Assembly (NCBI GenBank): GCA_951812955.1
Contig: OX638340.1
Span: 3,744,001-3,808,000, forward strand
DNA length: 64,000 bases
Direction of reading: 5' to 3'
Source of the DNA: an uncultured Gemmatimonadota bacterium
Lineage (GTDB): Bacteria > JAAXHH01
The position numbers and the translations under genes were made by a program. Below are positions 27,191-47,778 of the stretch, in pieces; positions within the stretch are counted from its first letter, which is position 1; every line of letters begins with the position of its first letter. The notes under the pieces were generated by a model. That model saw nothing but the letters and a program-made list of their open reading frames with translations. It searched no databases and was not told the origin of the DNA.

Positions 27191-27221
27191 CGGAACCATG
27201 GCGCAGGCAGCCTGGAGTACC

Positions 27222-28733
27222 ATGGCCGATCAACCCAACATCCTCCTGATCCTGTCCGACCAGATGGTTGCCGCGCTGACCGGAACCTATGGACATCCCG
27301 TCGTCCGGACCCCTAACCTGGACAGACTGGCGGCAACCGGCGTGCGCTACGATGCCGCCTACACCGCCTTTCCGCTCTGCGCGCCCGGCAGGGCCTGCCT
27401 GATGACGGGAAGGCATGCTTCGGAAATCGGCGCCTGGGACAACGGCGCACTGCTGTCTGCGGACGAACCTACCTTTGCCCACTACCTGGCTCGTGCGGGT
27501 TACGATACCGTGCTGTCGGGCAAGATGCATTTTATCGGCCCGGACCAACTGCACGGATTCAGAAAGCGGCTGACCACCGACATATATTCCTCCGATTTCG
27601 ATTGGGTAAAGCCGGAATGGATCCGCCTGAAAGAAACCAGAGGGACGGACTTCGAGCAGGTCATGAGCAACCGACCGGCCTATAACGCGGCGGGGTACAC
27701 GGGCGACGGTGTGCGGATCGACGCCTGGCACGACGCTTTGAGTTACGACGAGGAAACCCATTTCCGCGCTATTGAATACCTGCGGGCCAGGAACTCCGGC
27801 GGGGAGGACGGCCCCTTTCTGCTCTGCGCGTCCTATCACCATCCGCACGAACCGTTCTGGCCGCCCGATGCCTACTGGAAACAGTATGAAGGGGCGGACA
27901 TCGACCTGCCCGTCTTTCCTGCCGACCTGGATGATCACCATTCCATGATGGACCTGAACCTCAACGCCTATCACGGTACCGGGTGTTACGATCTGCGGAA
28001 CGAAGAGGGCCTCTACCGGCTTCGCCGCGCCTATTACGCCCTGGTGAGCTACATGGACGACAAGGTCGGTGGCCTGCTGGACGCGCTCGACGAAACCGGA
28101 CTGGCTGAAAATACGGTGGTAGTCTTCGCCAGCGATCATGGCGACATGCTGTGCGAGCGGGGCATGGTTCAGAAACGCTGTTTCTACGAATGGTCCTGCC
28201 GGGTGCCCCTCATCGTTCGCTTTCCGGATGGATGGAGGGCGGGTACGACCTTTCCCGATCCCGTGTCGCTGATCGATCTTCTGCCTACGTTCTGCGATCT
28301 CGCGGGCGTTGAGGACCGGCTTCCCCACGACGGCCAAAGTCTCGTGTCAGCGGCCGCGGACGACGGGGACCGCGTGGTGTTCGCCCAGGCGCACGAGGCC
28401 GTGGGCATGCCCTGCATCATGGCGAGGCAGGGTCGGTACAAGTACCATTACATACACGGTTTCGCCCCTCGGCTTTTTGATCTGGACAACGATCCGGACG
28501 AATGGCATAATCTCTCGGGCGAGCACGCCGAGGACGAACACCGCCAGGTGGAAGCGCGTCTGCTCGGCCGGATCCTCGACCGGTTCGACCCGGATGCCAT
28601 TGCGGAGGAAAACCTGGACAGCCTTTACCGGCGGCGCCTGATCCGGGATACCATGTCGCGGTACGGACACACGTGGAGTCATGAGCCCGGTTTAGACCAC
28701 CGGAAGGGCGCCATGAAACAGTATTTGAGCTAG
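27222..28733 (+). CDS. sulfatase (choline-sulfatase/arylsulfatase family)
   Basis: Formylglycine motif C-A-P-G-R (LCAPGRACLMTGR); metal-binding LSDQ..; no signal peptide; alternative start 27198. Confidence 0.85.
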   Translation: MADQPNILLILSDQMVAALTGTYGHPVVRTPNLDRLAATGVRYDAAYTAFPLCAPGRACLMTGRHASEIGAWDNGALLSADEPTFAHYLARAGYDTVLSGKMHFIGPDQLHGFRKRLTTDIYSSDFDWVKPEWIRLKETRGTDFEQVMSNRPAYNAAGYTGDGVRIDAWHDALSYDEETHFRAIEYLRARNSGGEDGPFLLCASYHHPHEPFWPPDAYWKQYEGADIDLPVFPADLDDHHSMMDLNLNAYHGTGCYDLRNEEGLYRLRRAYYALVSYMDDKVGGLLDALDETGLAENTVVVFASDHGDMLCERGMVQKRCFYEWSCRVPLIVRFPDGWRAGTTFPDPVSLIDLLPTFCDLAGVEDRLPHDGQSLVSAAADDGDRVVFAQAHEAVGMPCIMARQGRYKYHYIHGFAPRLFDLDNDPDEWHNLSGEHAEDEHRQVEARLLGRILDRFDPDAIAEENLDSLYRRRLIRDTMSRYGHTWSHEPGLDHRKGAMKQYLS

Positions 28734-35368: not shown

Positions 35369-37182
35369 TATCTGTTCTCCTCGATGATCGCTGCCAGGTC
35401 CTCCCTGATGGACTGGACCGGAACGCGGTTGATCACCATTTCACCGTCTTCATTCCTGTGCTGGGTAATGTTGATGCTTCCGAATTCCTCGTCCTTGTCC
35501 TCGTAGTCCTCGCGGAAGTGGGCGCCCCGGCTCTCCTTCCTTTCCAGCGCGGCGCGGGCCACCGCCTCCGACACGATCATCAGGAACTTGAGATCCAGCG
35601 CGGTGTGCCATCCGGGATTGTATTCCCGGTTTCCGATGACAGAGACTTTCTGCGCCCGCTGCCTGAGTTCGTCGATCACTTCCAGCGCTTTCTGCATGTC
35701 CCCTTCGTTTCGAACGATGCCGACGAGCTCCTGCATCCGGTCCTGCAGCTCGTACTGGATGTCGAAGGGATTCTCACCGCTGTTCTCCCGGTCGAAGGGC
35801 GCCAGGGTCTCGGCGACGGCCGCTTCGACCTGGCCTTCGTCGATGGTCCCGTTCTCGTTCTCGCGTGCGAACTCCGCCGCGTACCGGCCGGCGCGCTGTC
35901 CGAACACCAGCAGATCGGAAAGGGAGTTGCCACCCAGTCGATTGGCGCCGTGCAGGCCCGCGGCACATTCCCCGGCGGCGAAAAGACCGGGCACGGTAGA
36001 CATCTGCGTGTCGGCGTCCACGAGCACTCCGCCCATCACGTAATGGGTGGTGGGGCCTACTTCCATGGCCTCCTTCGTGATGTCGATGTCGGCCAGTTGC
36101 TTGAACTGGTGATACATGCTGGGCAGCTTGCGCTTGATGTGTTCTTCGGCGTTCGGCAGTTTTTCCTTGATCCAGGCGATGTCGAGGTATACGCCGTCGT
36201 GGGGCGACCCGCGGCCTTCCCTGATTTCCCGGACGATGCACCGCGCCACGTGATCACGCGTCAGCAGTTCCGGCGGACGACGGGCCTCCTTGTCTCCCTG
36301 GGTGTATATCCAGCCCTCTTCGGGACTGTCCGCAGTCTGGTTCTTGTACAGATCGGGGATGTCGTCGAACATGAACCGATTGCCTTCGCTGTTCGTCAGG
36401 GTGCCGCCCTCGCCGCGGACGCCTTCCGTGACCAGGATGCCCCGCACGCTCGGTGGCCAGACCATGCCCGTCGGGTGGAACTGGACGAATTCCATGTCCA
36501 GCAGCTCGGCCCCGGCTTCGTAGGCCAGTCCGTGGCCGTCTCCCGTGTATTCCCAGCTGTTGCTCGTAATCTTGAAGGCCCGGCCGATGCCGCCCGTGGC
36601 CAGGATGACCGCCTTGGCGCGAAAGACCCGAAAACGTCCCCGCTCCCGGTCGTAGCCGAAGGCGCCGACGACCCGGTCTCCGTCCTTCAGCAGGGCCACG
36701 ATGGCGTGTTCCATATACACTTCCATGCCCTGGTGGATCCCGTAATCCTGCAGGGTCCGTATCATCTCCAGGCCGGTACGGTCGCCCACGTGGGCCAGCC
36801 GAGGATACTTGTGCCCCCCGAAGTTGCGCTGCAGTATGCGGCCGTCGTCCGTCCGGTCGAACAGGGCGCCCCAGGCTTCCAGTTCCCGCACGCGGTCCGG
36901 CGCTTCCCTGGCGTGCAGCTCGGCCATGCGCCAGTTGCTCAGGTACTGGCCGCCCCGCATCGTGTCGGCGAAATGCACGCTCCAGCCGTCCCGGTCGTCC
37001 ACGTTGGCCAGCGCCGCCGCGACCCCGCCTTCGGCCATGACCGTATGGGCTTTGCCCAGTAGGGATTTGCACACCAGACCTACTGAAACTCCGGCCGACG
37101 AGGCCTCGATCGCCGCCCGGAGCCCTGCTCCGCCGGCTCCGATCACCAGTACGTCATGTTCATGATGCTGGTATTCCGCCAT
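35368..37182 (-). CDS. sdhA: succinate dehydrogenase/fumarate reductase flavoprotein subunit
   Basis: FAD-binding VLVIGAGGAGLRAA, covalent-FAD His region, active-site motifs; start MAEYQ at 37182 overlaps the sdhC stop (TAATG) and its stop overlaps the sdhB start. Confidence 0.92.
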   Translation of the reverse strand: MAEYQHHEHDVLVIGAGGAGLRAAIEASSAGVSVGLVCKSLLGKAHTVMAEGGVAAALANVDDRDGWSVHFADTMRGGQYLSNWRMAELHAREAPDRVRELEAWGALFDRTDDGRILQRNFGGHKYPRLAHVGDRTGLEMIRTLQDYGIHQGMEVYMEHAIVALLKDGDRVVGAFGYDRERGRFRVFRAKAVILATGGIGRAFKITSNSWEYTGDGHGLAYEAGAELLDMEFVQFHPTGMVWPPSVRGILVTEGVRGEGGTLTNSEGNRFMFDDIPDLYKNQTADSPEEGWIYTQGDKEARRPPELLTRDHVARCIVREIREGRGSPHDGVYLDIAWIKEKLPNAEEHIKRKLPSMYHQFKQLADIDITKEAMEVGPTTHYVMGGVLVDADTQMSTVPGLFAAGECAAGLHGANRLGGNSLSDLLVFGQRAGRYAAEFARENENGTIDEGQVEAAVAETLAPFDRENSGENPFDIQYELQDRMQELVGIVRNEGDMQKALEVIDELRQRAQKVSVIGNREYNPGWHTALDLKFLMIVSEAVARAALERKESRGAHFREDYEDKDEEFGSINITQHRNEDGEMVINRVPVQSIREDLAAIIEENR

Positions 37183-37985
37183 TAAAGGATTCTCCAATCC
37201 GTCCACACGCCCATGGCCACGAGGCGCACGTATATATCCGAGAAACCGACCCATACCAGGCTCATCCAGGCCCAGGTCATGTGTCCCCGGTTCAAGCACG
37301 AGACGCAGTTGTAACCCGCGTGCCGGACGGGCGCTTTGGACAGATGATCCAGGTACCCGCCGATCAGGTGCCGCAGTGAGTGGCAGCCGAACTGGTAGCC
37401 GCCGAGCAGGACGACGTTCAAGGTCAACACAATGGTTCCGACGCCGATACCGAACGTAGTCTCACCCGTCGCCGCGTCCGTGAACCACATGGCCTTCCAT
37501 GCGTCCTGGACCAGGAAGATCCAGATGATGAATACCAGGTAAAGGAAGTATCGGTGAATGTTCTGCATGATCAACGGGAAGGATTGCTCCCCGCGGTACT
37601 TTTTCCTCGGTTCGGAAACGCTGCAGGATGGCGGGTCAGCCCAGAAAGCCTTGTAGTAAGCGCCCCGGTAGTAATAGCAGGTAATCCGGAATCCGGCCGG
37701 AGCCCAAAGGATTATGAAGGCAGGTGAAAACGGCAGCAGGGCCGGCCACCATACGGGTTTGGGACCGAACAGGGCATGGGACGAACTGCCGAAAATCTCT
37801 GGAGAATAAAAGGGCGACAGGTAGGGGCCCCAGGCGTAGAACTCACCCTGGAAGGCCGCCCAGGTTGAGTAGACGACAAAGGCGGAGAATACGCCGAATG
37901 TCAGTAATTGCTGCGCCCACCATGCGTCTCTGCGTTGCGTCTGACCAAAACCGCTCGTCTTCAGCGAAACACCGGTTGTCGACAT
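37182..37985 (-). CDS. sdhC: succinate dehydrogenase cytochrome b subunit, b558 family
   Basis: 267 aa, five TM, conserved His heme ligands; Bacteroidetes/Bacillus-type single large anchor subunit. Confidence 0.85.
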   Translation of the reverse strand: MSTTGVSLKTSGFGQTQRRDAWWAQQLLTFGVFSAFVVYSTWAAFQGEFYAWGPYLSPFYSPEIFGSSSHALFGPKPVWWPALLPFSPAFIILWAPAGFRITCYYYRGAYYKAFWADPPSCSVSEPRKKYRGEQSFPLIMQNIHRYFLYLVFIIWIFLVQDAWKAMWFTDAATGETTFGIGVGTIVLTLNVVLLGGYQFGCHSLRHLIGGYLDHLSKAPVRHAGYNCVSCLNRGHMTWAWMSLVWVGFSDIYVRLVAMGVWTDWRIL

Positions 37986-38096
37986 AGGCTATCCTCTTGA
38001 ATCCAGCGTACCGAACAACTGAATTTCACGGACAAAACACATTAGCGCAAAATAGACCGGCGAAGGCCGCAATGCAATAGAAAAATAACCTCGCTT

Positions 38097-40211
38097 TTGC
38101 CATGGTTTCGGCATGCTGCCGTCCGCAACAACTGGGATAAAACAATGGCCGGATCAGCCTGTCGGGCAGTATATTCAAACCCTGTTTCGTTACGCGACGC
38201 CGGAACGCCCGGTTCAGTCATGCCGGGCAGACAAGGAAGCCGATCCCACCCGATGCCAGCCGACTCGTCACAGGACGCACGCTCCCCGCGCAGCCCGACC
38301 GGCATCACCCCCCGCGTACTGATCCTGGGGGGCGTTCTGGCCGTATTCATCGCGATCTGGACGCCCCACACCAATTACGTGATGCATGGCCCGAGGCTCA
38401 CCCTGAGCCATATCTCTATCGCGGCCCTGGTTTCCTTTCTCATGGTGATCTTCTGTATGCAGATCCCCCTTCGCAGGTGGCGGCCCGCGCAGGCGTTCTC
38501 CGCGAGCGAACTGGCCGTGCTGTTCGTCTTCTGTCTCGTTTCGTCGACAATTCCGGGCAAGGCTTTCGTGGACTACTTTATCGGAATCCTCGCCTCCCCT
38601 TACTATTACGTTACGCCGGAGAACCGGTGGGCGGATACCTTCTTTCCCCACCTGCCCGGATGGCTGGTCGTCCGGGACGACCTGGGGGCCGCGACGGCGT
38701 TCTACGAAGGCGCCGGCCAGAGCATCATCCTGTGGGTCGAATGGATCGTTCCCCTGTTCTGGTGGATGTGCATGCTGGCGGCGCTGTTCGTGGTCATGGC
38801 CTGCATTTCGGTGATCTTCCGCAAGCAGTGGGTCGAGCACGAGCGGTTGTCTTTTCCCGCGGTCCAGATACCCTCGATGCTCATCAGGGAGACGACCCGG
38901 GGCGGACTGATTCCGGGATTAGTGACGAACCGGTACTTCCAGGTGGGATTCGGGGTCACCTTCGCCCTGCTGGCGTGGAACTGCCTCGCCTATTTCGGCA
39001 CATTCCCCGCCATTCCCGTCGGCGCCGCTTTTAGGACGGAGATTCAACTGGCGCCTTCCGTTCCACCGACCCAGGTGCAGTTCAACCTCTTTATGATGTG
39101 CTTCGCCTATTTCGCCGACTTGAAGGTGTTGTTCAGCATCTGGTTTTTTCACCTGCTCGCCCTGCTGGAGATCAGTCTGCTCAACCAGTTGGGCGTATCG
39201 GCGTCCGGCGTGGCGGGTGGCTCGCAGTTCATCGTGAAGACGGAGCACTTCGGCGGGTTCTGGGTATTCGTACTGTGGGGCATATGGATCGGCAGAAACC
39301 ACCTGAAGGCGGTCTGGCGCAAGGCCCTGGGAAGCGCACCGGAGGTCGACGACTCCATGGAACTGCTGTCCTATCGCACGGCTGTGGGGGGACTGGCCGC
39401 CGGCCTGTGCTACCTGCTGTTCTGGCTTAACAGCATGGGTATGTCGGTCGATGTGGCCGTCCTCTTCCTCCTGATCACGCTCGCGCTTTATGTGGGCGTC
39501 ACCCGCATCGTCGCAGAGACGGGGCTCGTTTTCCTCGATCTACCGGTCAACTCGAACGAAATGACGGTGGCCGTCATCGGTTCGAGCAACCTGTCGCCTT
39601 CGAACCTCACATCCCTCGGACTGACCCACGCCATCTCCCACAACCACCGGGGCATCGGCCTGTCTTCGCTGATTCACGGCGTGAAGGCCTCCGAAGGCTT
39701 CGCCCGGTCGAGAAAAGGACTGTTCGCCGCGGTGTGCGTATTGCTTGCGCTCACGTTCATCGTCACGAACGGCTACACGATATACGCCGGGGCGACCGGT
39801 ACCGGGGCCCATGATTTCGCCCCGCTTCGGGCCGATAACTTCTACGACCAGCTGGCCACCTGGTTCAACAATCCCTACACCCTGTCCTACGAGGAAATCT
39901 ATTTCCTGCTCCTGGGTGCTGTCATTACCTGCGGTCTCCTGTTCATGCAGTACCATTTCGCCGGGTGGCCCTTCCATCCCATCGGATACATCGTGGCCTA
40001 CGCCGACATCATCAACTTCGAAATCACGTCGATCTTCATGATCTGGCTGATCAAGGTGCTGCTGCTGAGGCTGGGCGGGTTCGACATGTACCGGAGGATG
40101 CAGCCTGCCGTGATCGGCGTGCTGCTGGGCTACGCGGCGGGGGTGACCCTGTCTCTTGCCGTCGATGTCATCTGGTTCCCCGGCCAGGGGCACAACGTGC
40201 ACAACTGGTAG
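38097..40211 (+). CDS. polytopic membrane protein of unknown function (paralog A; >=12 TM)
   Basis: Shares with the convergent neighbour the blocks SP(E/Y)N(R/Q)W, IPLFWWM, VIFRKQWVEHERL(S/R)FP, NPIG(Y/F) and overall collinear hydrophobicity; true start uncertain (several in-frame Met). Confidence 0.7.
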   Translation: MPWFRHAAVRNNWDKTMAGSACRAVYSNPVSLRDAGTPGSVMPGRQGSRSHPMPADSSQDARSPRSPTGITPRVLILGGVLAVFIAIWTPHTNYVMHGPRLTLSHISIAALVSFLMVIFCMQIPLRRWRPAQAFSASELAVLFVFCLVSSTIPGKAFVDYFIGILASPYYYVTPENRWADTFFPHLPGWLVVRDDLGAATAFYEGAGQSIILWVEWIVPLFWWMCMLAALFVVMACISVIFRKQWVEHERLSFPAVQIPSMLIRETTRGGLIPGLVTNRYFQVGFGVTFALLAWNCLAYFGTFPAIPVGAAFRTEIQLAPSVPPTQVQFNLFMMCFAYFADLKVLFSIWFFHLLALLEISLLNQLGVSASGVAGGSQFIVKTEHFGGFWVFVLWGIWIGRNHLKAVWRKALGSAPEVDDSMELLSYRTAVGGLAAGLCYLLFWLNSMGMSVDVAVLFLLITLALYVGVTRIVAETGLVFLDLPVNSNEMTVAVIGSSNLSPSNLTSLGLTHAISHNHRGIGLSSLIHGVKASEGFARSRKGLFAAVCVLLALTFIVTNGYTIYAGATGTGAHDFAPLRADNFYDQLATWFNNPYTLSYEEIYFLLLGAVITCGLLFMQYHFAGWPFHPIGYIVAYADIINFEITSIFMIWLIKVLLLRLGGFDMYRRMQPAVIGVLLGYAAGVTLSLAVDVIWFPGQGHNVHNW

Positions 40212-40247
40212 CTTGACCGGATGCCGGCGCCCGCCGGAATATCCCGG

Positions 40248-42260
40248 CTAGAATATCTCGGCGATATGGGGGGTGTCGGGGAAATACACTGTATCGACGA
40301 CGTAGGCGGCCAGGACCCCGACCGCATAACCCACGAGAATCCCCAGGAACAGAGGCTGGGCCTTCCGGTACAACCCGACGCCGCCAACACGGAGGAGGAT
40401 GACCTGCACGATCCATGCGACGAAGAGGGTGAAGACGACCCCCCGGATGGGTCCCGAAGCGCCAATGGCGAATCCGATGGGATTGAGCGGCCACCAGTAG
40501 AAGAGGTACCTGCCCAGGGCCAGCAGCGTGCTGATGGCCATACCCGCCGCGAGGAACAGGATTTCGAGGGTGGAGATCTGCGTGGCGTTCTTCATCCACT
40601 TCACCACCAGGTCGAAGAAAAGGTTCCCGGTGTTGCGCAGGTTGATGTGGAGGTTGTCCGCCCCTTCCGCGTAACCGGAGTAGACGACGTATCCCGTCGA
40701 GATCGCCGTCCCGGCAACAAAAGCGAGGCATATCAGCAGGAATAGCCGTCCCCGGTTCTCCCCGAGATAGTCGCGCCACCAGGCGACGTGGGAAAGACCG
40801 ACCATGGTGAAGGTGCGCCAGTTACGCGCGAAGGCGTTGGTCAGTCCCAGACCGGTCAGCGTCGACCCCGAAAGGCTGGCCGAACCCACCATTCCTACCG
40901 TGAAGGCGTGGGCGTTGATGGGCAGGTCGAGGTTGATTAGGCCCGCCTCGGCGAGGACGCGGGCAATGCCGAAATAGAATACCAGGAGGAAGAAAAGAAA
41001 GAGCATGGCGACGGGGATGGAGAATCCGATGGCGCTGAGCCAGGCGGTCATGAAGAGCACGCCCAGGACCAGGCCGACGACCGCCGTTCGGTAGGAGAAC
41101 AGTTCATCTTCGTCCCGCAGGTCGCTCTCCCTTCCGAGGGATTTACGCAGGACGTTGCGGATGTGTTTCCGGGCCATCCAGCCGCCGATCAGGGCGAACA
41201 TGATCAGTCCGCCGCAGAACTGGATGGACACGAGTCCGCGGGGTACGATCGTCTCGGCGGGCGAGACCACTCCGAAGCGGTTGAGCAGGCCTGTTTCCAG
41301 GATGCCGAGCACCTGGAAGAACCAGACACTGAAGAGGATCTCGACGTTGACGAAGAAGGCAAAGCACAGGACGTAAGGCACGAGCCGAATGGCGACAGGC
41401 GGGAAGGAGGGATCGATGACCACGTTGAAGACCGGTCCGGGCAGGGGGATGTGGGGCAGTACGCCCCAGAATCCGATGATGTTCCAGGACATGATGGCCA
41501 GGCTGGCCGCGAAACCGACCTGGAAAAGCCGGTTACCGAAGAGGGACGGCCATCTCCCGGGCGTGTTCCCGTCGGTTTCGACCAGGCGCAGGATGACCTC
41601 GCCCATGGGGAAACGGAGCCGCTCGTGTTCCACCCACTGTTTCCGGAAGATCACGACCAGGCAGGCGCCGATGAAGAGCAGCGTGCCCAGGGCCGACATC
41701 CACCAGAAGAGCGGTATGACCCAGTCCTGCCACGGGATCGGCAATCCGGCAGGCCGCCCCTCGAAGAAATCCGAGACTTGCCCCTTGTCATTGGGGATGA
41801 CCGCCCATTCAGGCAAGTACGCGAAAAAGTGGGCCTCCCACTGGTTTTCCGGACTCGCGAAGTAATGGGGCGCGGTGATTACGCTGATGAGATAGCGGAC
41901 CATGCCCCAGTCCGGCACCATGGCCGCGATCAGTCCCATGGCGAAAATGACCAGGAGTTCCGGCCTTGTCAGCGCGGCGTCCCGGTATATTAAGCGGATC
42001 AGTGTGTTCGGCAGCAGGACCAGGAAAAGGAAGGGAATGACCAGACTAAGCGGCATCTGGGGGAAGGTCAGATAGTTGTAGTTCAGCTGTGCGGAGGCGT
42101 GTTGTCCCCAGAAAGCGACGCAGCACGCGAAAGCCAGGCCCAGGACGGCCGTTTTGAGGGATATGGGTTTCACGGTCATGCCTGGTCTAGTCCGGCCGCG
42201 CAGGAAGTCATTCCTGGATGGAGGCTGTGCCGCGCTTGAGCCAGAAGCCCCCGTCGACAC
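40248..42260 (-). CDS. polytopic membrane protein of unknown function (paralog B; >=12 TM)
   Basis: Collinear homolog of 38097..40211 (same conserved blocks); start may be the internal Met at 42179. Confidence 0.7.
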   Translation of the reverse strand: MSTGASGSSAAQPPSRNDFLRGRTRPGMTVKPISLKTAVLGLAFACCVAFWGQHASAQLNYNYLTFPQMPLSLVIPFLFLVLLPNTLIRLIYRDAALTRPELLVIFAMGLIAAMVPDWGMVRYLISVITAPHYFASPENQWEAHFFAYLPEWAVIPNDKGQVSDFFEGRPAGLPIPWQDWVIPLFWWMSALGTLLFIGACLVVIFRKQWVEHERLRFPMGEVILRLVETDGNTPGRWPSLFGNRLFQVGFAASLAIMSWNIIGFWGVLPHIPLPGPVFNVVIDPSFPPVAIRLVPYVLCFAFFVNVEILFSVWFFQVLGILETGLLNRFGVVSPAETIVPRGLVSIQFCGGLIMFALIGGWMARKHIRNVLRKSLGRESDLRDEDELFSYRTAVVGLVLGVLFMTAWLSAIGFSIPVAMLFLFFLLVFYFGIARVLAEAGLINLDLPINAHAFTVGMVGSASLSGSTLTGLGLTNAFARNWRTFTMVGLSHVAWWRDYLGENRGRLFLLICLAFVAGTAISTGYVVYSGYAEGADNLHINLRNTGNLFFDLVVKWMKNATQISTLEILFLAAGMAISTLLALGRYLFYWWPLNPIGFAIGASGPIRGVVFTLFVAWIVQVILLRVGGVGLYRKAQPLFLGILVGYAVGVLAAYVVDTVYFPDTPHIAEIF

Positions 42261-42987
42261 GCAGGACTTCCCCGGTGATGTAGTCCGCCGCGTCGGAACA
42301 CAGAAAGGTGGCCGCCTTGCCCAGGTCTTCGATCGTGCCCATCCGGCCCCAGGGCAGCCGCCTGCCGCCTTCCTCCAGTTCCTGCTCCGTCGAGTACTGT
42401 CGTTCGCCCGGCGTGTCGGTCCATCCCGGTTCGATCACATTCACGCGGATGCGGTGCTCCAGCAGTTCCAGGGCGATGATGGCGGCCATGTGGTTCATGC
42501 CGGCCTTAGCGGACGAATAGGACAGGGAGGTGGGGAAGGGGAGGAAGGACATGACCGAGCTGATGAAGAGGATACTGCCGCCTTTTTTCGCGTCCACCAT
42601 CTTCCGGGCGCCCGACTGCGCGACATGGAAGGCGCCGAAGAGGCTGACTTCGTAAGTTTTCTTCATTTCGTCCACGTCCATTGCGAGAAAAGGCTCCCGC
42701 GTGGAATAGTAGGCGTTGGCCACCACGATATCGGGTCCGCCGAGTTCCTTCGCCGTCTGATCCACCATGTCGTCCACGGCGGACCGGTCGGAGGCGTCCG
42801 CGCCGACGAGGATCGCCCGACGGCCCATGGACCTGATTTCCTCGGCGACGGCCTCGCCGTCGTCCCGGTGGCTGAAGTAGTTGACGGTGACGTCCGCCCC
42901 GGCCCGGGCCATCTCCAGTGCGATGCCCTTGCCGATGCCCCGGGACGAACCACTGATCAGCGCTGTCTTGCCCGTCAGGTCGATCAT
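42208..42987 (-). CDS. SDR family oxidoreductase
   Basis: ISGSSRGIG cofactor motif, YSSAK catalytic motif; start at MIDLTG (42987); the longer ORF-track N-terminus is translation of an upstream tandem repeat. Confidence 0.85.
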   Translation of the reverse strand: MIDLTGKTALISGSSRGIGKGIALEMARAGADVTVNYFSHRDDGEAVAEEIRSMGRRAILVGADASDRSAVDDMVDQTAKELGGPDIVVANAYYSTREPFLAMDVDEMKKTYEVSLFGAFHVAQSGARKMVDAKKGGSILFISSVMSFLPFPTSLSYSSAKAGMNHMAAIIALELLEHRIRVNVIEPGWTDTPGERQYSTEQELEEGGRRLPWGRMGTIEDLGKAATFLCSDAADYITGEVLRVDGGFWLKRGTASIQE

Positions 42988-43032
42988 GGTTCCCTCGATT
43001 CGAAATACATGGTGAACGGTACGAATGTCCCG

Positions 43033-43201
43033 AGCGGCCGCACGATCGGGAGTGCCCGTACGACCGGGAGTGCCCGTACGACTAGGAGTACCCGCGAGAT
43101 CGAGATCGGCCGCACGATCGGGAGCTGTTGAACGATACAGGCGTGCCCGCGCGATCAAGCGCGACAGCGCGATCAAGCGTGACAGCGCGATCGGGATCGA
43201 C
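43033..43201. repeat. intergenic compound tandem repeat (18-bp units: cgaYcgggagtgcccgta x3; cgcgatcaagcgYgacag x3; ggccgcacgatcggg x2)
   Basis: Directly visible; between the TIM-barrel isomerase stop and the SDR start. Confidence 0.85.
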
Positions 43202-43217
43202 TACGCCGGGAGCGGTT

Positions 43218-43994
43218 TCAAAGCTTCATGGCGGTCATGTTGCGGTAGCTGACAGCGATACTGTCGAAGGGGTCGCCGGCGCAGGTGTCCTGTTCGACGA
43301 CGTACCACTGGGACCCCGCGGTCTCGCATGCAGCGACGATGCCGGACCAGTTCATGTTGCCCTCGCCGATCTCGGCCATCACCTGTTCCCGTCCCGACAC
43401 GCCCAGGTCCTTGAAATGGATGACCGGGCACCGGTCCCGTACCCGGCCGATCCAGTGTATGGGGTCCCCACCGCCGTACTGGATCCAGTAGGTGTCGATT
43501 TCAAAGCACAGGGCGGGGTCGCTCTCCTCCACGAGGATGGCCAGCCCGGTCCGACCGCCCACCCGCACGAGTTCCGTGTGGTGGTTGTGGTAGCTGAAGG
43601 ACATGCCCGCTTCCTGCAACCCGATGGCCACGGCAGACGCGTCCACCGCGAACCGCGAAAAACCGTCCGGATCGTCCCAGTAGGATCTCGGCATGGACCC
43701 GACGGCTATATGCTCACATCCCCAGAGGCGGTGTTCGGCGGCGACTTCATCCGGTTTCTCCTGCAGCCGTTCGAAGGGTACGTGCGTGGCGCAGACGTGC
43801 AGGCCGGCGTCCCGGATCATGGCGCCGAGTTCCGCGGGGTCGACAGGACCCAGGGCCGATAGCTGTATGTGGTCGTAGCCGATGGACTTGACTCTCTTCA
43901 GGGTGTCCGCGATATCGGCCGGCGTCTGCACGAAGTCGCGTAAAGTATAGAGTGTAACGGCGATCTTGCTGTCTGGCATCCATCTCTCCTTCAT
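43218..43994 (-). CDS. sugar phosphate isomerase/epimerase (xylose-isomerase-like TIM barrel)
   Basis: 258 aa; AP-endonuclease-2/xylose-isomerase-like TIM motifs; start ATGA-overlaps the upstream sulfatase stop. Confidence 0.85.
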   Translation of the reverse strand: MKERWMPDSKIAVTLYTLRDFVQTPADIADTLKRVKSIGYDHIQLSALGPVDPAELGAMIRDAGLHVCATHVPFERLQEKPDEVAAEHRLWGCEHIAVGSMPRSYWDDPDGFSRFAVDASAVAIGLQEAGMSFSYHNHHTELVRVGGRTGLAILVEESDPALCFEIDTYWIQYGGGDPIHWIGRVRDRCPVIHFKDLGVSGREQVMAEIGEGNMNWSGIVAACETAGSQWYVVEQDTCAGDPFDSIAVSYRNMTAMKL

Positions 43995-45433
43995 TTTTCC
44001 ATAGGTTCAAAAGCAGGCGAATCATCCTCCCACGCGCCGCCGACCGGACGAAGTTGCCCGAGTCCTGTAACGGGCCGTAGCCGCCCGTCACGATCCGGAT
44101 CGGCGTATCGTTCGAACCAGCCTTCCAGTTCCCCGCGGAGCGATCTGCATCGGCCGGCATATCCGGCATCTTCCGCGAGGTTGGCCCGTTCGTCCGGGTC
44201 ATTCTCCAGGTCGTACAGTTCGTTCGGTCCCTCGGTATACCGGTGCACGTACTTCCACGATTCGGTCCGGATCATGCGCGTGCCGCCGTATTCGTCGAAA
44301 ATCACCACGTGGTCCCGGCTCGCATCGTCCCGGCCCGTCCAGGCGTCCAGGGTGTTCCGCCCCGGCAGGTTGCGGTCCCAGGGTACGGGCAGGTCCAGGT
44401 ACGACAGCAACGTGGGCATGAAGTCGTAAGCGCTGAGCATGGCCTCTTGCACGAATCCTTCGGGCAGGCGTCCTGGCTGGCTGACCAGGGCGGGTACCCG
44501 GATGGAGTTCTCGTACATGTTTAACGGGCTCGTCCCGTTTCCTTTCCCCCAGAATCCGTGGTGTCCCAGGCTGAAACCGTTGTCGCTCAAGAAGATAACC
44601 AGGGTGTTTTCGCGGATGCCGTGCCGGTCGAGCCGGTCAAGCAGGCGGCCTACGTCGAGGTCCATGGCCGTGACGGCCGCGAAGTAGCCCTTCAGGCTTT
44701 CGCGGTCGCCCATGCATTCGCGGGTCAGGCCGCCGGCCCAGGGATGGATGGGTTCCTGCGGACAGGATGCGAAGGCGCAGTCGTCGTAGGAATCGACGAT
44801 GTCCTGCGGATGGCCCGTCCACGGGCTGTGCGGCGCGGTATAATGGACGCCGAGGTAGAACGGTTCTTCCTGGTTGGCGTGGCGGTCGATAAAGGCGAGG
44901 GCGTCGTCGGTAATGACATTCGTGACGTATCCCGGTTCGTTGACCGGGACGCCGTCGCGCACCATGGGGGCGTTGTTGTAGGGCCCGCCGCCGAACTGGT
45001 GGGCGAACCAGTGGGAAAACCCGTGCTGGGTCAGGGTGCTGTTGCCCAGGTGCCACTTGCCGCTGAGGCCGCATCGCCACCCATGGTCCGCGAGCACATC
45101 GGTGTACGCCGTTTCGCCCTCGAGGTATGAAGCCGCGTCCTCCCCGACGTTGCCACCCCGGATCCAGTCGTGCACGCCGTGCTGGGAGGCGATCCGGCCG
45201 GTCAGCAGCGTCGCGCGGCTGGGCGAGCAGACTGGCGTGGCCACGAAGAACCGGTCGAAGCGCACCCCGGTCTGCGCGATTCGGTCGATGTTCGGCGTGC
45301 GTATTTCGGAATTGCCGTAGCAGCCCGCCGCCCAGACGCCCTGGTCGTCGGTAAGGATGCAGAGCACGTTCGGTCGGGACGAAACCATGGCATGTCCTGG
45401 GATCGAGTGGTTATCCTGTGCGTGATTCATCAA
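43991..45433 (-). CDS. sulfatase (arylsulfatase family)
   Basis: Formylglycine motif C-S-P-S-R (PVCSPSRATLLTGR); LTDDQG metal site; no obvious signal peptide; alternative start 45388. Confidence 0.85.
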   Translation of the reverse strand: MMNHAQDNHSIPGHAMVSSRPNVLCILTDDQGVWAAGCYGNSEIRTPNIDRIAQTGVRFDRFFVATPVCSPSRATLLTGRIASQHGVHDWIRGGNVGEDAASYLEGETAYTDVLADHGWRCGLSGKWHLGNSTLTQHGFSHWFAHQFGGGPYNNAPMVRDGVPVNEPGYVTNVITDDALAFIDRHANQEEPFYLGVHYTAPHSPWTGHPQDIVDSYDDCAFASCPQEPIHPWAGGLTRECMGDRESLKGYFAAVTAMDLDVGRLLDRLDRHGIRENTLVIFLSDNGFSLGHHGFWGKGNGTSPLNMYENSIRVPALVSQPGRLPEGFVQEAMLSAYDFMPTLLSYLDLPVPWDRNLPGRNTLDAWTGRDDASRDHVVIFDEYGGTRMIRTESWKYVHRYTEGPNELYDLENDPDERANLAEDAGYAGRCRSLRGELEGWFERYADPDRDGRLRPVTGLGQLRPVGGAWEDDSPAFEPMEK

Positions 45434-45679
45434 GCATGGGAAAGCGTAGAACGAATTGCCAAATTAGCGTCCCACAAGCGGATTGTCACGCAGATTCTAC
45501 CCGCCCTCCCGGTCCAATTGGCGTTGCCATGCGTCCGCCCCATCCCGTATATTGTCACCCGCGACACCGGTGGAATGGCTAGTGTGCCCGCCCGGTGCAT
45601 CGGGACGAGTGAATCCGACCCGTTAAGAACAGATTGGTGTACGGACCCATGTCGACGGGCACTGGAGGGGACTGGCGTT

Positions 45680-46711
45680 ATGATACAAGCAGGTATCGTG
45701 GGCTACGGCCTGGCGGGTCGTTTATTCCATGCCTACCTGGTCTCGCGGACCGATGGGTTGAAACTGAAGGCCGTCGCCAGCCGGGATCCGGAACGGAGGG
45801 CACAGGCGGTACGGGACTGGTCCGTGGATACCTATGAGACCTTGACCGGTCTCCTGTCGGACGACGATATCCAGCTCGTCATCCTGGCCACGCCCCACCA
45901 TACCCACGCATCTCTGGCCATCGAGGCCATGGAGGCGGGAAGACACGTGGTCGTCGACAAGGTCATGTGCATGTCGGCCGCCGAAGCCGAGGAAATGATC
46001 GCGGTCAGCAAGCGTCGCGGGGTCACGTTGAGCGTCTTCCACAACCGCCGCTGGGACTGGGGTTATCTTACCGTGCGCAAGGCGGTGGAAGACGGCCTGC
46101 TGGGCGATCCCTTCCTGATCGAACGGTCTGTGCACCGGTTCCGGGCTTCCCGGGGCTGGCGGACAAACCGGTCGGAGAGCGGCGGCCTGCTCTACGATTG
46201 GGGCGCCCACCTCATCGACCAGGGGTTGCAGTTGCTGGGCGCCCTTCCCGACGCGATCCATTGCAAGGGGCACAAGTACCGGTGGGAAGGTGACATCGAG
46301 GATCACGTCACCTGTACCCTGTATTTCGAGAACGGCGCCGAATATCGCATTGAAATCAGCAATTTGTCCCGTATAGCAAAACCCCACTGGTACGTTCTGG
46401 GCACCCGGGGCTCCCTTGTCAAGACAGGCCTCGACCCCCAGGAGGACTGGATGAAGAATGGCGAGATCGAGGCCGCGGAGGAGGCCCCCGAAGACCGCGT
46501 CAGGGTTGCCGCGGAACGGGACGGCGAGGCCTTGGAGATGACCCTCGATCCGGTGAAGGGCAGTTGGGTGGATTACTACCGGAACATCGCAGCCGTGCTG
46601 GACAGTAGCGCGGAACTCGCCGTAAAGCCCGGCGAGATGCTGGACCTGATGAGGGTGCTGGACGCCGCCACGGAATCCCTGGAATCCGGGCGGGTGGTAT
46701 CGATGAAATGA
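45680..46711 (+). CDS. Gfo/Idh/MocA family oxidoreductase
   Basis: N-terminal Rossmann (GIVGYGLAG), DKVMCMS/EKP-like region; the ORF-track 5' extension to 45170 is unsupported. Confidence 0.85.
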   Translation: MIQAGIVGYGLAGRLFHAYLVSRTDGLKLKAVASRDPERRAQAVRDWSVDTYETLTGLLSDDDIQLVILATPHHTHASLAIEAMEAGRHVVVDKVMCMSAAEAEEMIAVSKRRGVTLSVFHNRRWDWGYLTVRKAVEDGLLGDPFLIERSVHRFRASRGWRTNRSESGGLLYDWGAHLIDQGLQLLGALPDAIHCKGHKYRWEGDIEDHVTCTLYFENGAEYRIEISNLSRIAKPHWYVLGTRGSLVKTGLDPQEDWMKNGEIEAAEEAPEDRVRVAAERDGEALEMTLDPVKGSWVDYYRNIAAVLDSSAELAVKPGEMLDLMRVLDAATESLESGRVVSMK

Positions 46712-47778
46712 GGATCGAACGGAACATGGAACCCAGGCGAATGGTCATTCTCACGGAGGGGAGTCTGGGCACGTTCTCGTCCAAGACGGCCGCTTCGCTC
46801 ATCCGCTACAAGCCCGATGAAACCGTGGCGGTGCTCGACAGCGTGCACGCAGGCAGGAATTTGGAAGACCTGCTCGAGGTCGGGCGGGGCATCCCGGTCG
46901 TGTCGACGTTGAAAGAAGCGCTGGCGTTCAGACCGACCTCGCTGGTTATCGGGATCGCTACGCCGGGCGGCATCTTGCCCGCAGCATGGCGAGCGGTCAT
47001 CCACGAGGCGATCGAGCACGGGCTCGAGGTGGTAAACGGGCTTCATACCTTTTTCGGCGAGGACGAAGAATTCGCCCGTCACGCCGAGAGGAAGGGCGTT
47101 CGGCTGTGGGACGTGCGAAAGCCGCCGGACGACCTGGATGTAGGGCGTCACGCGGTTCACGGCCTCCCGAATCTTCGTGTGCTGACCGTAGGCGCCGATT
47201 CGAGCATCGGCAAGAAGATCGCCGCGATCGAAATCAGCCGTGCGGCCCGCGAGACAGGATGGGATGCCGAGTTCGTAGCTACAGGGCAGACCGGTATTAT
47301 GATCGCTGGATCGGGCATCGCGGTGGACACCGTGGCGGCGGACTACATATCGGGTGCCGTGGAACGGCTTGTGCTAGAAAGAAAGGACCGGGAACTGCTG
47401 GTCATCGAAGGCCAGGGCACGGTCCTGCATCCGTCCTATTCCGGTGTATCGCTCGGCCTGTTGCACGGCGCGGCGCCGCAGGCCCTGGTGCTTTGCCACC
47501 AGCCCGGCCGTGACGTGATGCGCAATCTGCCCGTAGCCGTGCCGTCCTACGAAGAGATGATTCACGTTCACGAGACGATCGCCCGGCCGCTGTTTCCCTG
47601 CCGGGTCGCGGCGGTTTCGCTCAATTGCTTCGGCATGTCCATGGACGATGCCAGGCGCGAAGTGGACCGGGTCGCGCAGGAGACCGGACTTCCGGCGACG
47701 GACTGCGTGAAATTCGGATGCGATCCGATTCTGGAGGCCCTTGAGCCCCTGAAGGTTCCGTCGACGAAACCTACCTGA
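46708..47778 (+). CDS. DUF1611 domain protein (DgcN-like)
   Basis: ATGA overlap with the upstream stop; N-terminal Rossmann-like plus P-loop-like GADSSIGKK segment typical of DUF1611. Confidence 0.7.
   Translation: MRIERNMEPRRMVILTEGSLGTFSSKTAASLIRYKPDETVAVLDSVHAGRNLEDLLEVGRGIPVVSTLKEALAFRPTSLVIGIATPGGILPAAWRAVIHEAIEHGLEVVNGLHTFFGEDEEFARHAERKGVRLWDVRKPPDDLDVGRHAVHGLPNLRVLTVGADSSIGKKIAAIEISRAARETGWDAEFVATGQTGIMIAGSGIAVDTVAADYISGAVERLVLERKDRELLVIEGQGTVLHPSYSGVSLGLLHGAAPQALVLCHQPGRDVMRNLPVAVPSYEEMIHVHETIARPLFPCRVAAVSLNCFGMSMDDARREVDRVAQETGLPATDCVKFGCDPILEALEPLKVPSTKPT

Follow-up and report, generated by a model that had tools for sequence, protein, structure and literature searches.

Paralogous DUF6785/DUF6784 membrane proteins with a predicted OPT/YSL fold in an uncultured Gemmatimonadota bacterium

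The OPT/YSL transporter fold is known to us from one solved representative, and mainly from plants and fungi. Uptake systems that go with cytoplasmic sulfatases have also been described, namely the AtsRBC ABC transporter of Pseudomonas, with AtsA, and choline-O-sulfate uptake, with BetC. Barley YS1 (HvYS1), an importer, was purified and solved as a dimer held together by its scaffold domains and a C-terminal strand (PMC9691689). Here we describe two adjacent genes, which we call A and B, in 64,000 nucleotides of DNA from an uncultured Gemmatimonadota bacterium (contig OX638340.1, positions 3,744,001 to 3,808,000 of the forward strand). The window is that whole stretch, and positions are counted from its first letter. 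Our preferred interpretation, to which we give a probability of roughly 0.72, is that A and B are anciently diverged DUF6785/DUF6784 paralogues that would act as OPT/YSL-fold secondary importers, each serving a different catabolic cluster.

Family membership and predicted fold

Both proteins match the Pfam entry PF20581 (DUF6785) over profile positions 1-498, with 368.9 bits for A (E = 5e-110) and 328.6 bits for B (E = 8e-98; cut-off 25). It is followed, in the canonical N-to-C order, by PF20580 (DUF6784; 69.3 bits for A and 68.9 for B, E ~4e-19, cut-off 26.4), which occupies residues ~600-690 of the maximal open reading frames (ORFs), and the two domains are present together in 75/75 diverse family members. 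An earlier sequence-only reading of this DNA, made by a model without database searches, had placed the pair in an unrecognised family. This does not hold, since the family is already catalogued in Pfam, with no assigned function, and has a name at NCBI, where relatives are called either “hypothetical protein” or “DUF6785 family protein”. Searches with hidden Markov models (HMMs) of Pfam and NCBIfam give DUF6785/DUF6784 alone and no well-characterised family; at E<=1, zero NCBIfam models, and hence no OPT model of NCBIfam/TIGRFAM, match A or B. A literature search on DUF6785, DUF6784, PF20581 and PF20580 returned zero papers mentioning the family in the library searched, nor is it mentioned in papers that deal with the Latescibacteria of sponges or with the evolution of OPT. 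The family is nevertheless large: an exhaustive profile search recovered 6,145 clusters (50% identity) at E<=1e-3, 1,864 of them at E<=1e-30.

AlphaFold2 models, built with family alignments, are all-helical bundles for both proteins (predicted local distance difference test 86.2 and predicted template-modelling score 0.87 for B; 86.5 and 0.86 for A). When these were compared with the PDB by Foldseek, the sole match was barley YS1 (7wsr/7wst; E 2e-7 to 5e-7, probability 1.00, template-modelling scores 0.60-0.65), in an alignment that spans ~685 columns; the remaining PDB matches all have E>0.07. The predicted models match the YS1 protomer, with its core and scaffold domains, over their full length, and neither has a GT-C or MOP fold. 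The sequence-only reading had been unable to choose among transporters, GT-C glycosyltransferases and flippases. That remains correct for sequence, where no characterised HMM is matched, and is overtaken by structure, where both models match the OPT/YSL fold alone. On these models, DUF6785/DUF6784 is most likely a distant prokaryotic branch of the OPT/YSL superfamily by three-dimensional fold. It is highly improbable that A and B are polytopic membrane enzymes or handlers of lipid-linked glycans (GT-C, O-antigen-type polymerase or MOP-type flippase). Such proteins are superficially similar in their large size, many transmembrane helices and conserved aromatic and charged loop motifs, but no Pfam family of this kind is matched, save for a TMEM260-like match (E 0.034) in 1/75 members; moreover, the neighbouring genes encode cytoplasmic catabolic enzymes rather than cell-envelope biosynthesis, and the predicted structures largely refute the idea.

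Sequence searches of the PDB with two family profiles (A1 and A2) gave no meaningful match. An hhalign comparison of the N-terminal with the C-terminal half, aimed at an internal inverted repeat, was not significant (probability 0.4%), and a “(T/Y)R(A/T)A..G” motif near the start of each half is no more than suggestive. Judged by their models, A and B are relatives of the OPT fold and, by sequence, not members of the OPT family. The polar residues E74, R179, E186, R337, E359, R364, E411 and K592 (B numbering) are invariant in the family.

Several family members have unusual architectures or relations. Weak Pfam matches to UPF0182 (PF03699) occur in 5/75 DUF6785 proteins (best E 9.5e-5), and this large uncharacterised membrane family may be a further distant relative, judging from these matches. 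Three proteins (P0182, P0235 and P0243) carry an insert of ~200 aa, with no Pfam match, between the DUF6785 and DUF6784 regions; such inserts probably explain why Pfam describes a single protein family by two separate DUF entries. The only extra domains identified among the fusion proteins are MacB/FtsX, in one protein: P0222 (L084:8001-14363), predicted to have 2,120 aa, in which MacB_PCD/FtsX permease domains are joined to a DUF6785+DUF6784 module at the C terminus. The genes around it encode a sulfatase, a PhyH-like protein and several FG-GAP/UnbV_ASPIC proteins, and near the paralogues of group g2 there is likewise a MacB-like permease.

The gene pair and its paralogues

The maximal ORFs, 38097..40211 on the forward strand for A (704 aa, TTG start) and 40248..42260 on the reverse strand for B (670 aa, GTG start), overshoot the genes (Table 1). 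The starts were moved inward, to M53 in A and M28 in B, because orthologues, and the gene calls of a 98%-identical genome, are shorter: orthologues of B have 641-647 aa and those of A 652 aa at 100% query coverage, and the gene calls are 641 aa (B) and 652 aa (A).

Table 1. Positions of the gene pair, the genes next to B, and the two spacers that flank A
Feature	Position	Strand	Description
ORF A	38253..40211	+	652 aa; DUF6785+DUF6784; clade II paralogue; OPT/YSL predicted fold; likely ATG 38253
ORF B	40248..42179	-	643 aa; DUF6785+DUF6784; clade I paralogue; OPT/YSL predicted fold; likely ATG 42179
SDR-family oxidoreductase	42208..42987	-	259 aa; Pfam adh_short_C2, E 1.6e-56
Xylose-isomerase-like TIM-barrel protein	43218..43994	-	Pfam AP_endonuc_2, E 7.6e-9
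Cys-type sulfatase	43991..45388	-	465 aa; Pfam Sulfatase, E 2.7e-48; first gene of co-directional cluster
A-B spacer	40212..40247		36 bp; palindrome CCGGC-gccc-GCCGG at ~40224-40237
sdhC-like/A divergent spacer	37986..38252		267 bp, AT-richer; presumed A promoter region

The sequence-only reading had described A and B as paralogous polytopic membrane proteins of ~650 aa, encoded tail-to-tail with their stops 36 bp apart, and had proposed a pairwise alignment as a check. On every one of these points it was right. BLASTP aligns the two proteins over 666 positions with 36% identity, 56% positives and 14 gaps (E 8e-145), and a hydropathy scan finds 11-13 strongly hydrophobic 19-mers in each; by this alignment they are collinear homologues, with a similarity far beyond chance. 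The shared motifs it had listed are present, apart from minor errors: “VIFRKQWVEHERL(S/R)FP” and “LLR(L/V)GG(F/V)” are exact, but A has TPENRW instead of SPEN, HPIGY instead of NPIGY, and IVPLFWWM. It had also located the pair between sdhCAB and a sulfatase/oxidoreductase cluster, and the flanks agree, with sdhC-like, sdhA and sdhB genes on one side and SDR, TIM-barrel, sulfatase and GFO/IDH/MocA genes on the other.

Both genes are under purifying selection, with ratios of nonsynonymous to synonymous substitutions of 0.09-0.12 for B and 0.13-0.18 for A when compared with orthologues. These values (0.09-0.18 overall), together with full-length orthologues of each, rule out pseudogene status for either copy, and the decay of one copy, which the earlier reading had itself raised as a possibility, is absent.

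The genomic search returned at least 565 matching stretches in species-representative genomes. Named sources are metagenome-assembled genomes (MAGs) of Latescibacterota, Gemmatimonadota, Zixibacteria and Armatimonadota, and the MAG names suggest that many come from sponges or corals. Contigs L015 and L026 of “Gemmatimonadetes bacterium APA_bin_41” match the window itself at 99-100% identity. Among the best 80 of at least 565 stretches, one 3.97-Mb chromosome accounts for 6 loci with at least 8 family genes. With a threshold of >=62% identity, the fetched loci yield 18 groups of family proteins, plus one truncated fragment. These 18 paralogue groups form two sister clades; B belongs to clade I and A to clade II. 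By this comparison, the paralogues have undergone a large expansion, and A and B come from different sister clades within it, both of them old. The pair did not arise by recent local tandem duplication, for A and B share 36% identity, less than the 45-56% that B shares with many dispersed paralogues. We favour different specificities for the two proteins because they belong to these old clades and are not a recent local duplicate.

The convergent pair is kept with its flanks in 13 orthologous loci, and further pairings occur elsewhere in the family. In a second type (g4/g3), a clade I and a clade II gene lie ~4 kb apart on the same strand, with two sulfatase genes and a PhyH-like gene between them; the full arrangement, seen in L029 and relatives (10 fetched loci; e.g., L029:6000-16000), runs through two PhyH-like dioxygenases, DUF6785 (clade I), a cytoplasmic sulfatase, a PhyH-like protein, a second cytoplasmic sulfatase and DUF6785 (clade II). 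Contig L084, which is unrelated, shows the combination of sulfatase, PhyH and DUF6785 again. The third type consists of members of a single clade that arose by recent tandem duplication. Distant members are also found in pairs, and on an Armatimonadota contig two very divergent members form a tight tandem 24 bp apart.

These pairs bear on the possibility that A and B form a heterodimeric transporter, which would be one functional unit by analogy with the YS1 homodimer. The dimeric state of YS1, the two independent locus types that each join clade I to clade II (g0/g1, convergent, and g4/g3), the Armatimonadota tandem, the retention of the A/B pairing in its 13 loci, and a well-conserved C-terminal tail, (W/Y)FP(D/G)..H, are all consistent with such an assembly. 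The convergent orientation of A and B, however, precludes their co-transcription, most paralogue groups (5-13 and others) are solitary within +/-8 kb, and the more distant B orthologues (64-67% identity) have no A next to them. The third pair type joins members of one clade, the cases of clade I with clade II number just two, which chance might produce, and the authors of the YS1 structure left function as a monomer possible (PMC9691689). We regard the heterodimer as unlikely. A broader proposal, in which DUF6785/DUF6784 is a large, hitherto unrecognised prokaryotic OPT/YSL branch that, having expanded to 8 or more copies per genome in Latescibacterota and Gemmatimonadota associated with sponges and corals, forms the main import route for host-derived small metabolites, including sulfate esters, and in which clade I and clade II pairs act jointly (as a heterodimeric elevator, or as a couple of substrate importer and product exporter), appears doubtful to us.

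Gene neighbourhoods and a possible import route

Read in the direction of B, the gene order in the window and in 13 relatives is a GFO gene on the opposite strand, then sulfatase, TIM-barrel, SDR and B genes in one direction, then A facing B, and finally sdhCAB, again in the direction of B. The TIM-barrel gene overlaps the sulfatase stop by 4 bp, and the SDR stop lies 28 bp upstream of the B ATG; SDR precedes B in almost every one of the 13 orthologous loci, and the two are probably co-transcribed. The TIM-SDR spacer measures 40-88 bp in most relatives and ~230 bp in the window, where it is inflated by degenerate 18-bp tandem repeats (43032-43206; Tandem Repeats Finder counts CCGTACGACCGGGAGTGC 3.2 times and GCGCGATCAAGCGCGACA 2.4 times). 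These repeats reach up to 6 copies in register and are found elsewhere only in the 98%-identical relative L001, where the array is shorter. Because of the 4-bp overlap, the 28-bp gap and the short TIM-SDR spacers of relatives, an operon sulfatase-TIM-SDR-B, with B as its last gene, is likely.

The best NCBIfam match of the SDR is glucose 1-dehydrogenase-like (207 bits, cut-off 215), and the TIM-barrel protein is weakly IolE-like (myo-inosose-2 dehydratase, E 1e-11, far below the cut-off). The sulfatase has its catalytic motif, PNVLCILTDDQG, 5 residues downstream of the Met supported by orthologues, and its translation contains the CSPSR motif. The same holds more widely, in that all sulfatases flanking family members have a catalytic domain that starts 5-9 residues after the Met. 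This leaves no room for a signal peptide, so the flanking sulfatases are cytoplasmic, and their sulfated substrates must therefore be imported. The B cluster contains no other transporter gene.

In the interpretation that we prefer, A and B would be secondary transporters of the cytoplasmic membrane that work like YS1, with a mobile core (transport) domain of helical hairpins and a discontinuous helix moving elevator-style against a scaffold domain. Transport would probably be driven by protons and would bring small organic solutes into the cell. B would probably import a sulfated sugar- or polyol-like compound, which the cytoplasmic sulfatase, TIM-barrel protein and SDR would desulfate and oxidise, and A would probably carry a different solute.

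The opposite direction must also be considered, since it is not fixed by the fold alone. A, B or both might be exporters of inorganic sulfate, of the desulfated product or of another metabolite; cytoplasmic desulfation releases sulfate that needs handling, sulfatases are present in both paired loci, and one family member is fused to a MacB/FtsX-type export permease, with others near such permeases. The characterised proteins of this fold cited here are, however, all importers, namely YS1 (PMC9691689) and fungal OPT1/Pgt1 according to their source annotation. The substrate of a cytoplasmic sulfatase has to be brought in by an importer, for which the B cluster offers no other candidate, and the contexts of family members overwhelmingly consist of catabolic enzymes and not of biosynthetic clusters. 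We consider export distinctly unlikely.

The neighbours of other paralogues and of distant members are varied. They include an M32 carboxypeptidase with an ATP-grasp ligase, an aminotransferase with a 2-oxoacid:ferredoxin oxidoreductase, PhyH-like dioxygenases with sulfatases, MR/MLE enzymes, corrinoid methyltransferase sets, a beta-eliminating lyase and GH4. Such varied catabolic neighbours are the pattern expected of substrate-specific importers. In a distant lineage, the stretch L082:3383-11319 contains two DUF6785 genes that alternate with genes for two URO-D/MtaA-like methyltransferases and a B12-binding corrinoid protein, an arrangement suggestive of a transporter that accompanies a corrinoid-dependent demethylation system.

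Set against uptake by OPT/YSL-fold importers are the following points. The fold evidence consists of predicted structures and not of solved ones. The Pfam OPT profile (PF03169), which gives 556 bits with yeast Opt1 as a positive control, is absent from A and B at E<=1 and from 75/75 divergent members at E<=10, and the DUF6785 consensus lacks the NPG and KIPPR motifs that are seen in the consensus of OPT (PT clade; “LNPGPFTIKEH” and “KLGQYMKIPPR”). When aligned by hhalign with a fungal OPT alignment (A4, built from database OPT matches; the Opt1 probe is 100% identical to the database Opt1p), the DUF6785 profile A2 reaches a probability of 9% (E 0.0036) over 218 collinear columns in the C-terminal halves, a result that is suggestive but falls short of significance. 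The fungal profile misses YS1 too, since neither A4 nor Opt1 alone matches it in the PDB at E<=10; for this reason we treat the hhalign comparison as uninformative rather than negative, and the sequence methods used cannot bridge the two accepted OPT clades. As to substrates, a sulfatase lies within 4 genes in just 5/18 paralogue groups, so that the link to sulfatases is not statistically established, and a second sulfatase of cytoplasmic type, 10 kb upstream of the pair (27198-28733, forward strand), makes it possible that sulfatases are near the pair by chance. The NCBIfam matches of the neighbouring enzymes (arylsulfatase/choline-sulfatase-like, IolE-like, glucose-1-dehydrogenase-like and DgcN-like) are all below threshold, and no pathway can be named from them. 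Finally, transport activity and substrate class, as well as direction and proton coupling, are what we infer for A and B, and for the direction and the coupling ion this, too, tells against the interpretation.

A diverges from sdhCAB and is transcribed apart from the B cluster. The A-B spacer ranges from 3 to 175 bp across orthologous loci, and its palindrome in the window lacks a T-tract and does not qualify as a canonical intrinsic terminator. A consensus scan for promoters and terminators was not above shuffled expectation, with no sigma-70 match in the spacer between the sdhC-like gene and A and no terminator in the A-B spacer, and an Rfam/riboswitch search of 37800-46000 gave nothing at E<=1. 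The sequence-only reading had taken the convergence as a sign that two specificities are independently regulated; independent transcription fits the orientation, and the two specificities are a further step, for which the age of the clades argues, as described above. Two other neighbours may be mentioned. Upstream of sdhA and sdhB, a 267-aa membrane protein (37182-37985, reverse strand), the presumed membrane anchor of succinate dehydrogenase, has no Pfam or NCBIfam match and is kept next to sdhAB in orthologous loci. Between the GFO/IDH/MocA gene and hisD lies a DUF1611 protein (46708-47778, forward strand) that resembles DgcN (N-acetyltransferase; 284 bits, cut-off 480).

Comparison with known systems

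If our interpretation is correct, a function open to testing, that of secondary importers with an OPT fold, could be assigned to several thousand proteins now listed as hypothetical or as DUFs, the OPT/YSL fold would extend to a sequence-distinct bacterial family, and a route would be at hand by which sulfatase-rich symbionts of sponges and corals could supply their cytoplasmic sulfatases with substrates. This would be no new kind of molecular machine, and its value would lie in annotation, in symbiont physiology and in the choice of targets for transport assays.

A and B do not differ from Pfam DUF6785 + DUF6784, of which they are clear members. HvYS1, of the YSL clade of the OPT family (Transporter Classification 2.A.67), shares the predicted fold at 9-14% identity in the structural alignment, with no HMM-level similarity; it takes up metal chelates in a plant, whereas A and B are bacterial and occur in the context of catabolic enzymes. 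YS1 also has a disulfide, Cys250-Cys671, and Asp residues that bind its substrate and protons; proton binding takes place in its TM8-H6/TM9 region. The fungal OPT/PT clade (Opt1/Hgt1 of S. cerevisiae and Pgt1 of S. pombe; PF03169) is polytopic like A and B and is annotated as proton-coupled importers of small peptides and glutathione, but its members are ~150 aa longer, and the comparison has little power, as the fungal profile misses YS1. The AtsRBC/AtsA and BetC systems follow the same logic as the B cluster, in that a sulfatase without a signal peptide requires an inner-membrane importer of its own, encoded close by. Their importers are of the ABC or BCCT type, whereas B is a candidate single-polypeptide importer with an OPT fold. 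A and B are a bacterial variant, distinct in sequence, of a transporter fold that is already known, and not something categorically new.

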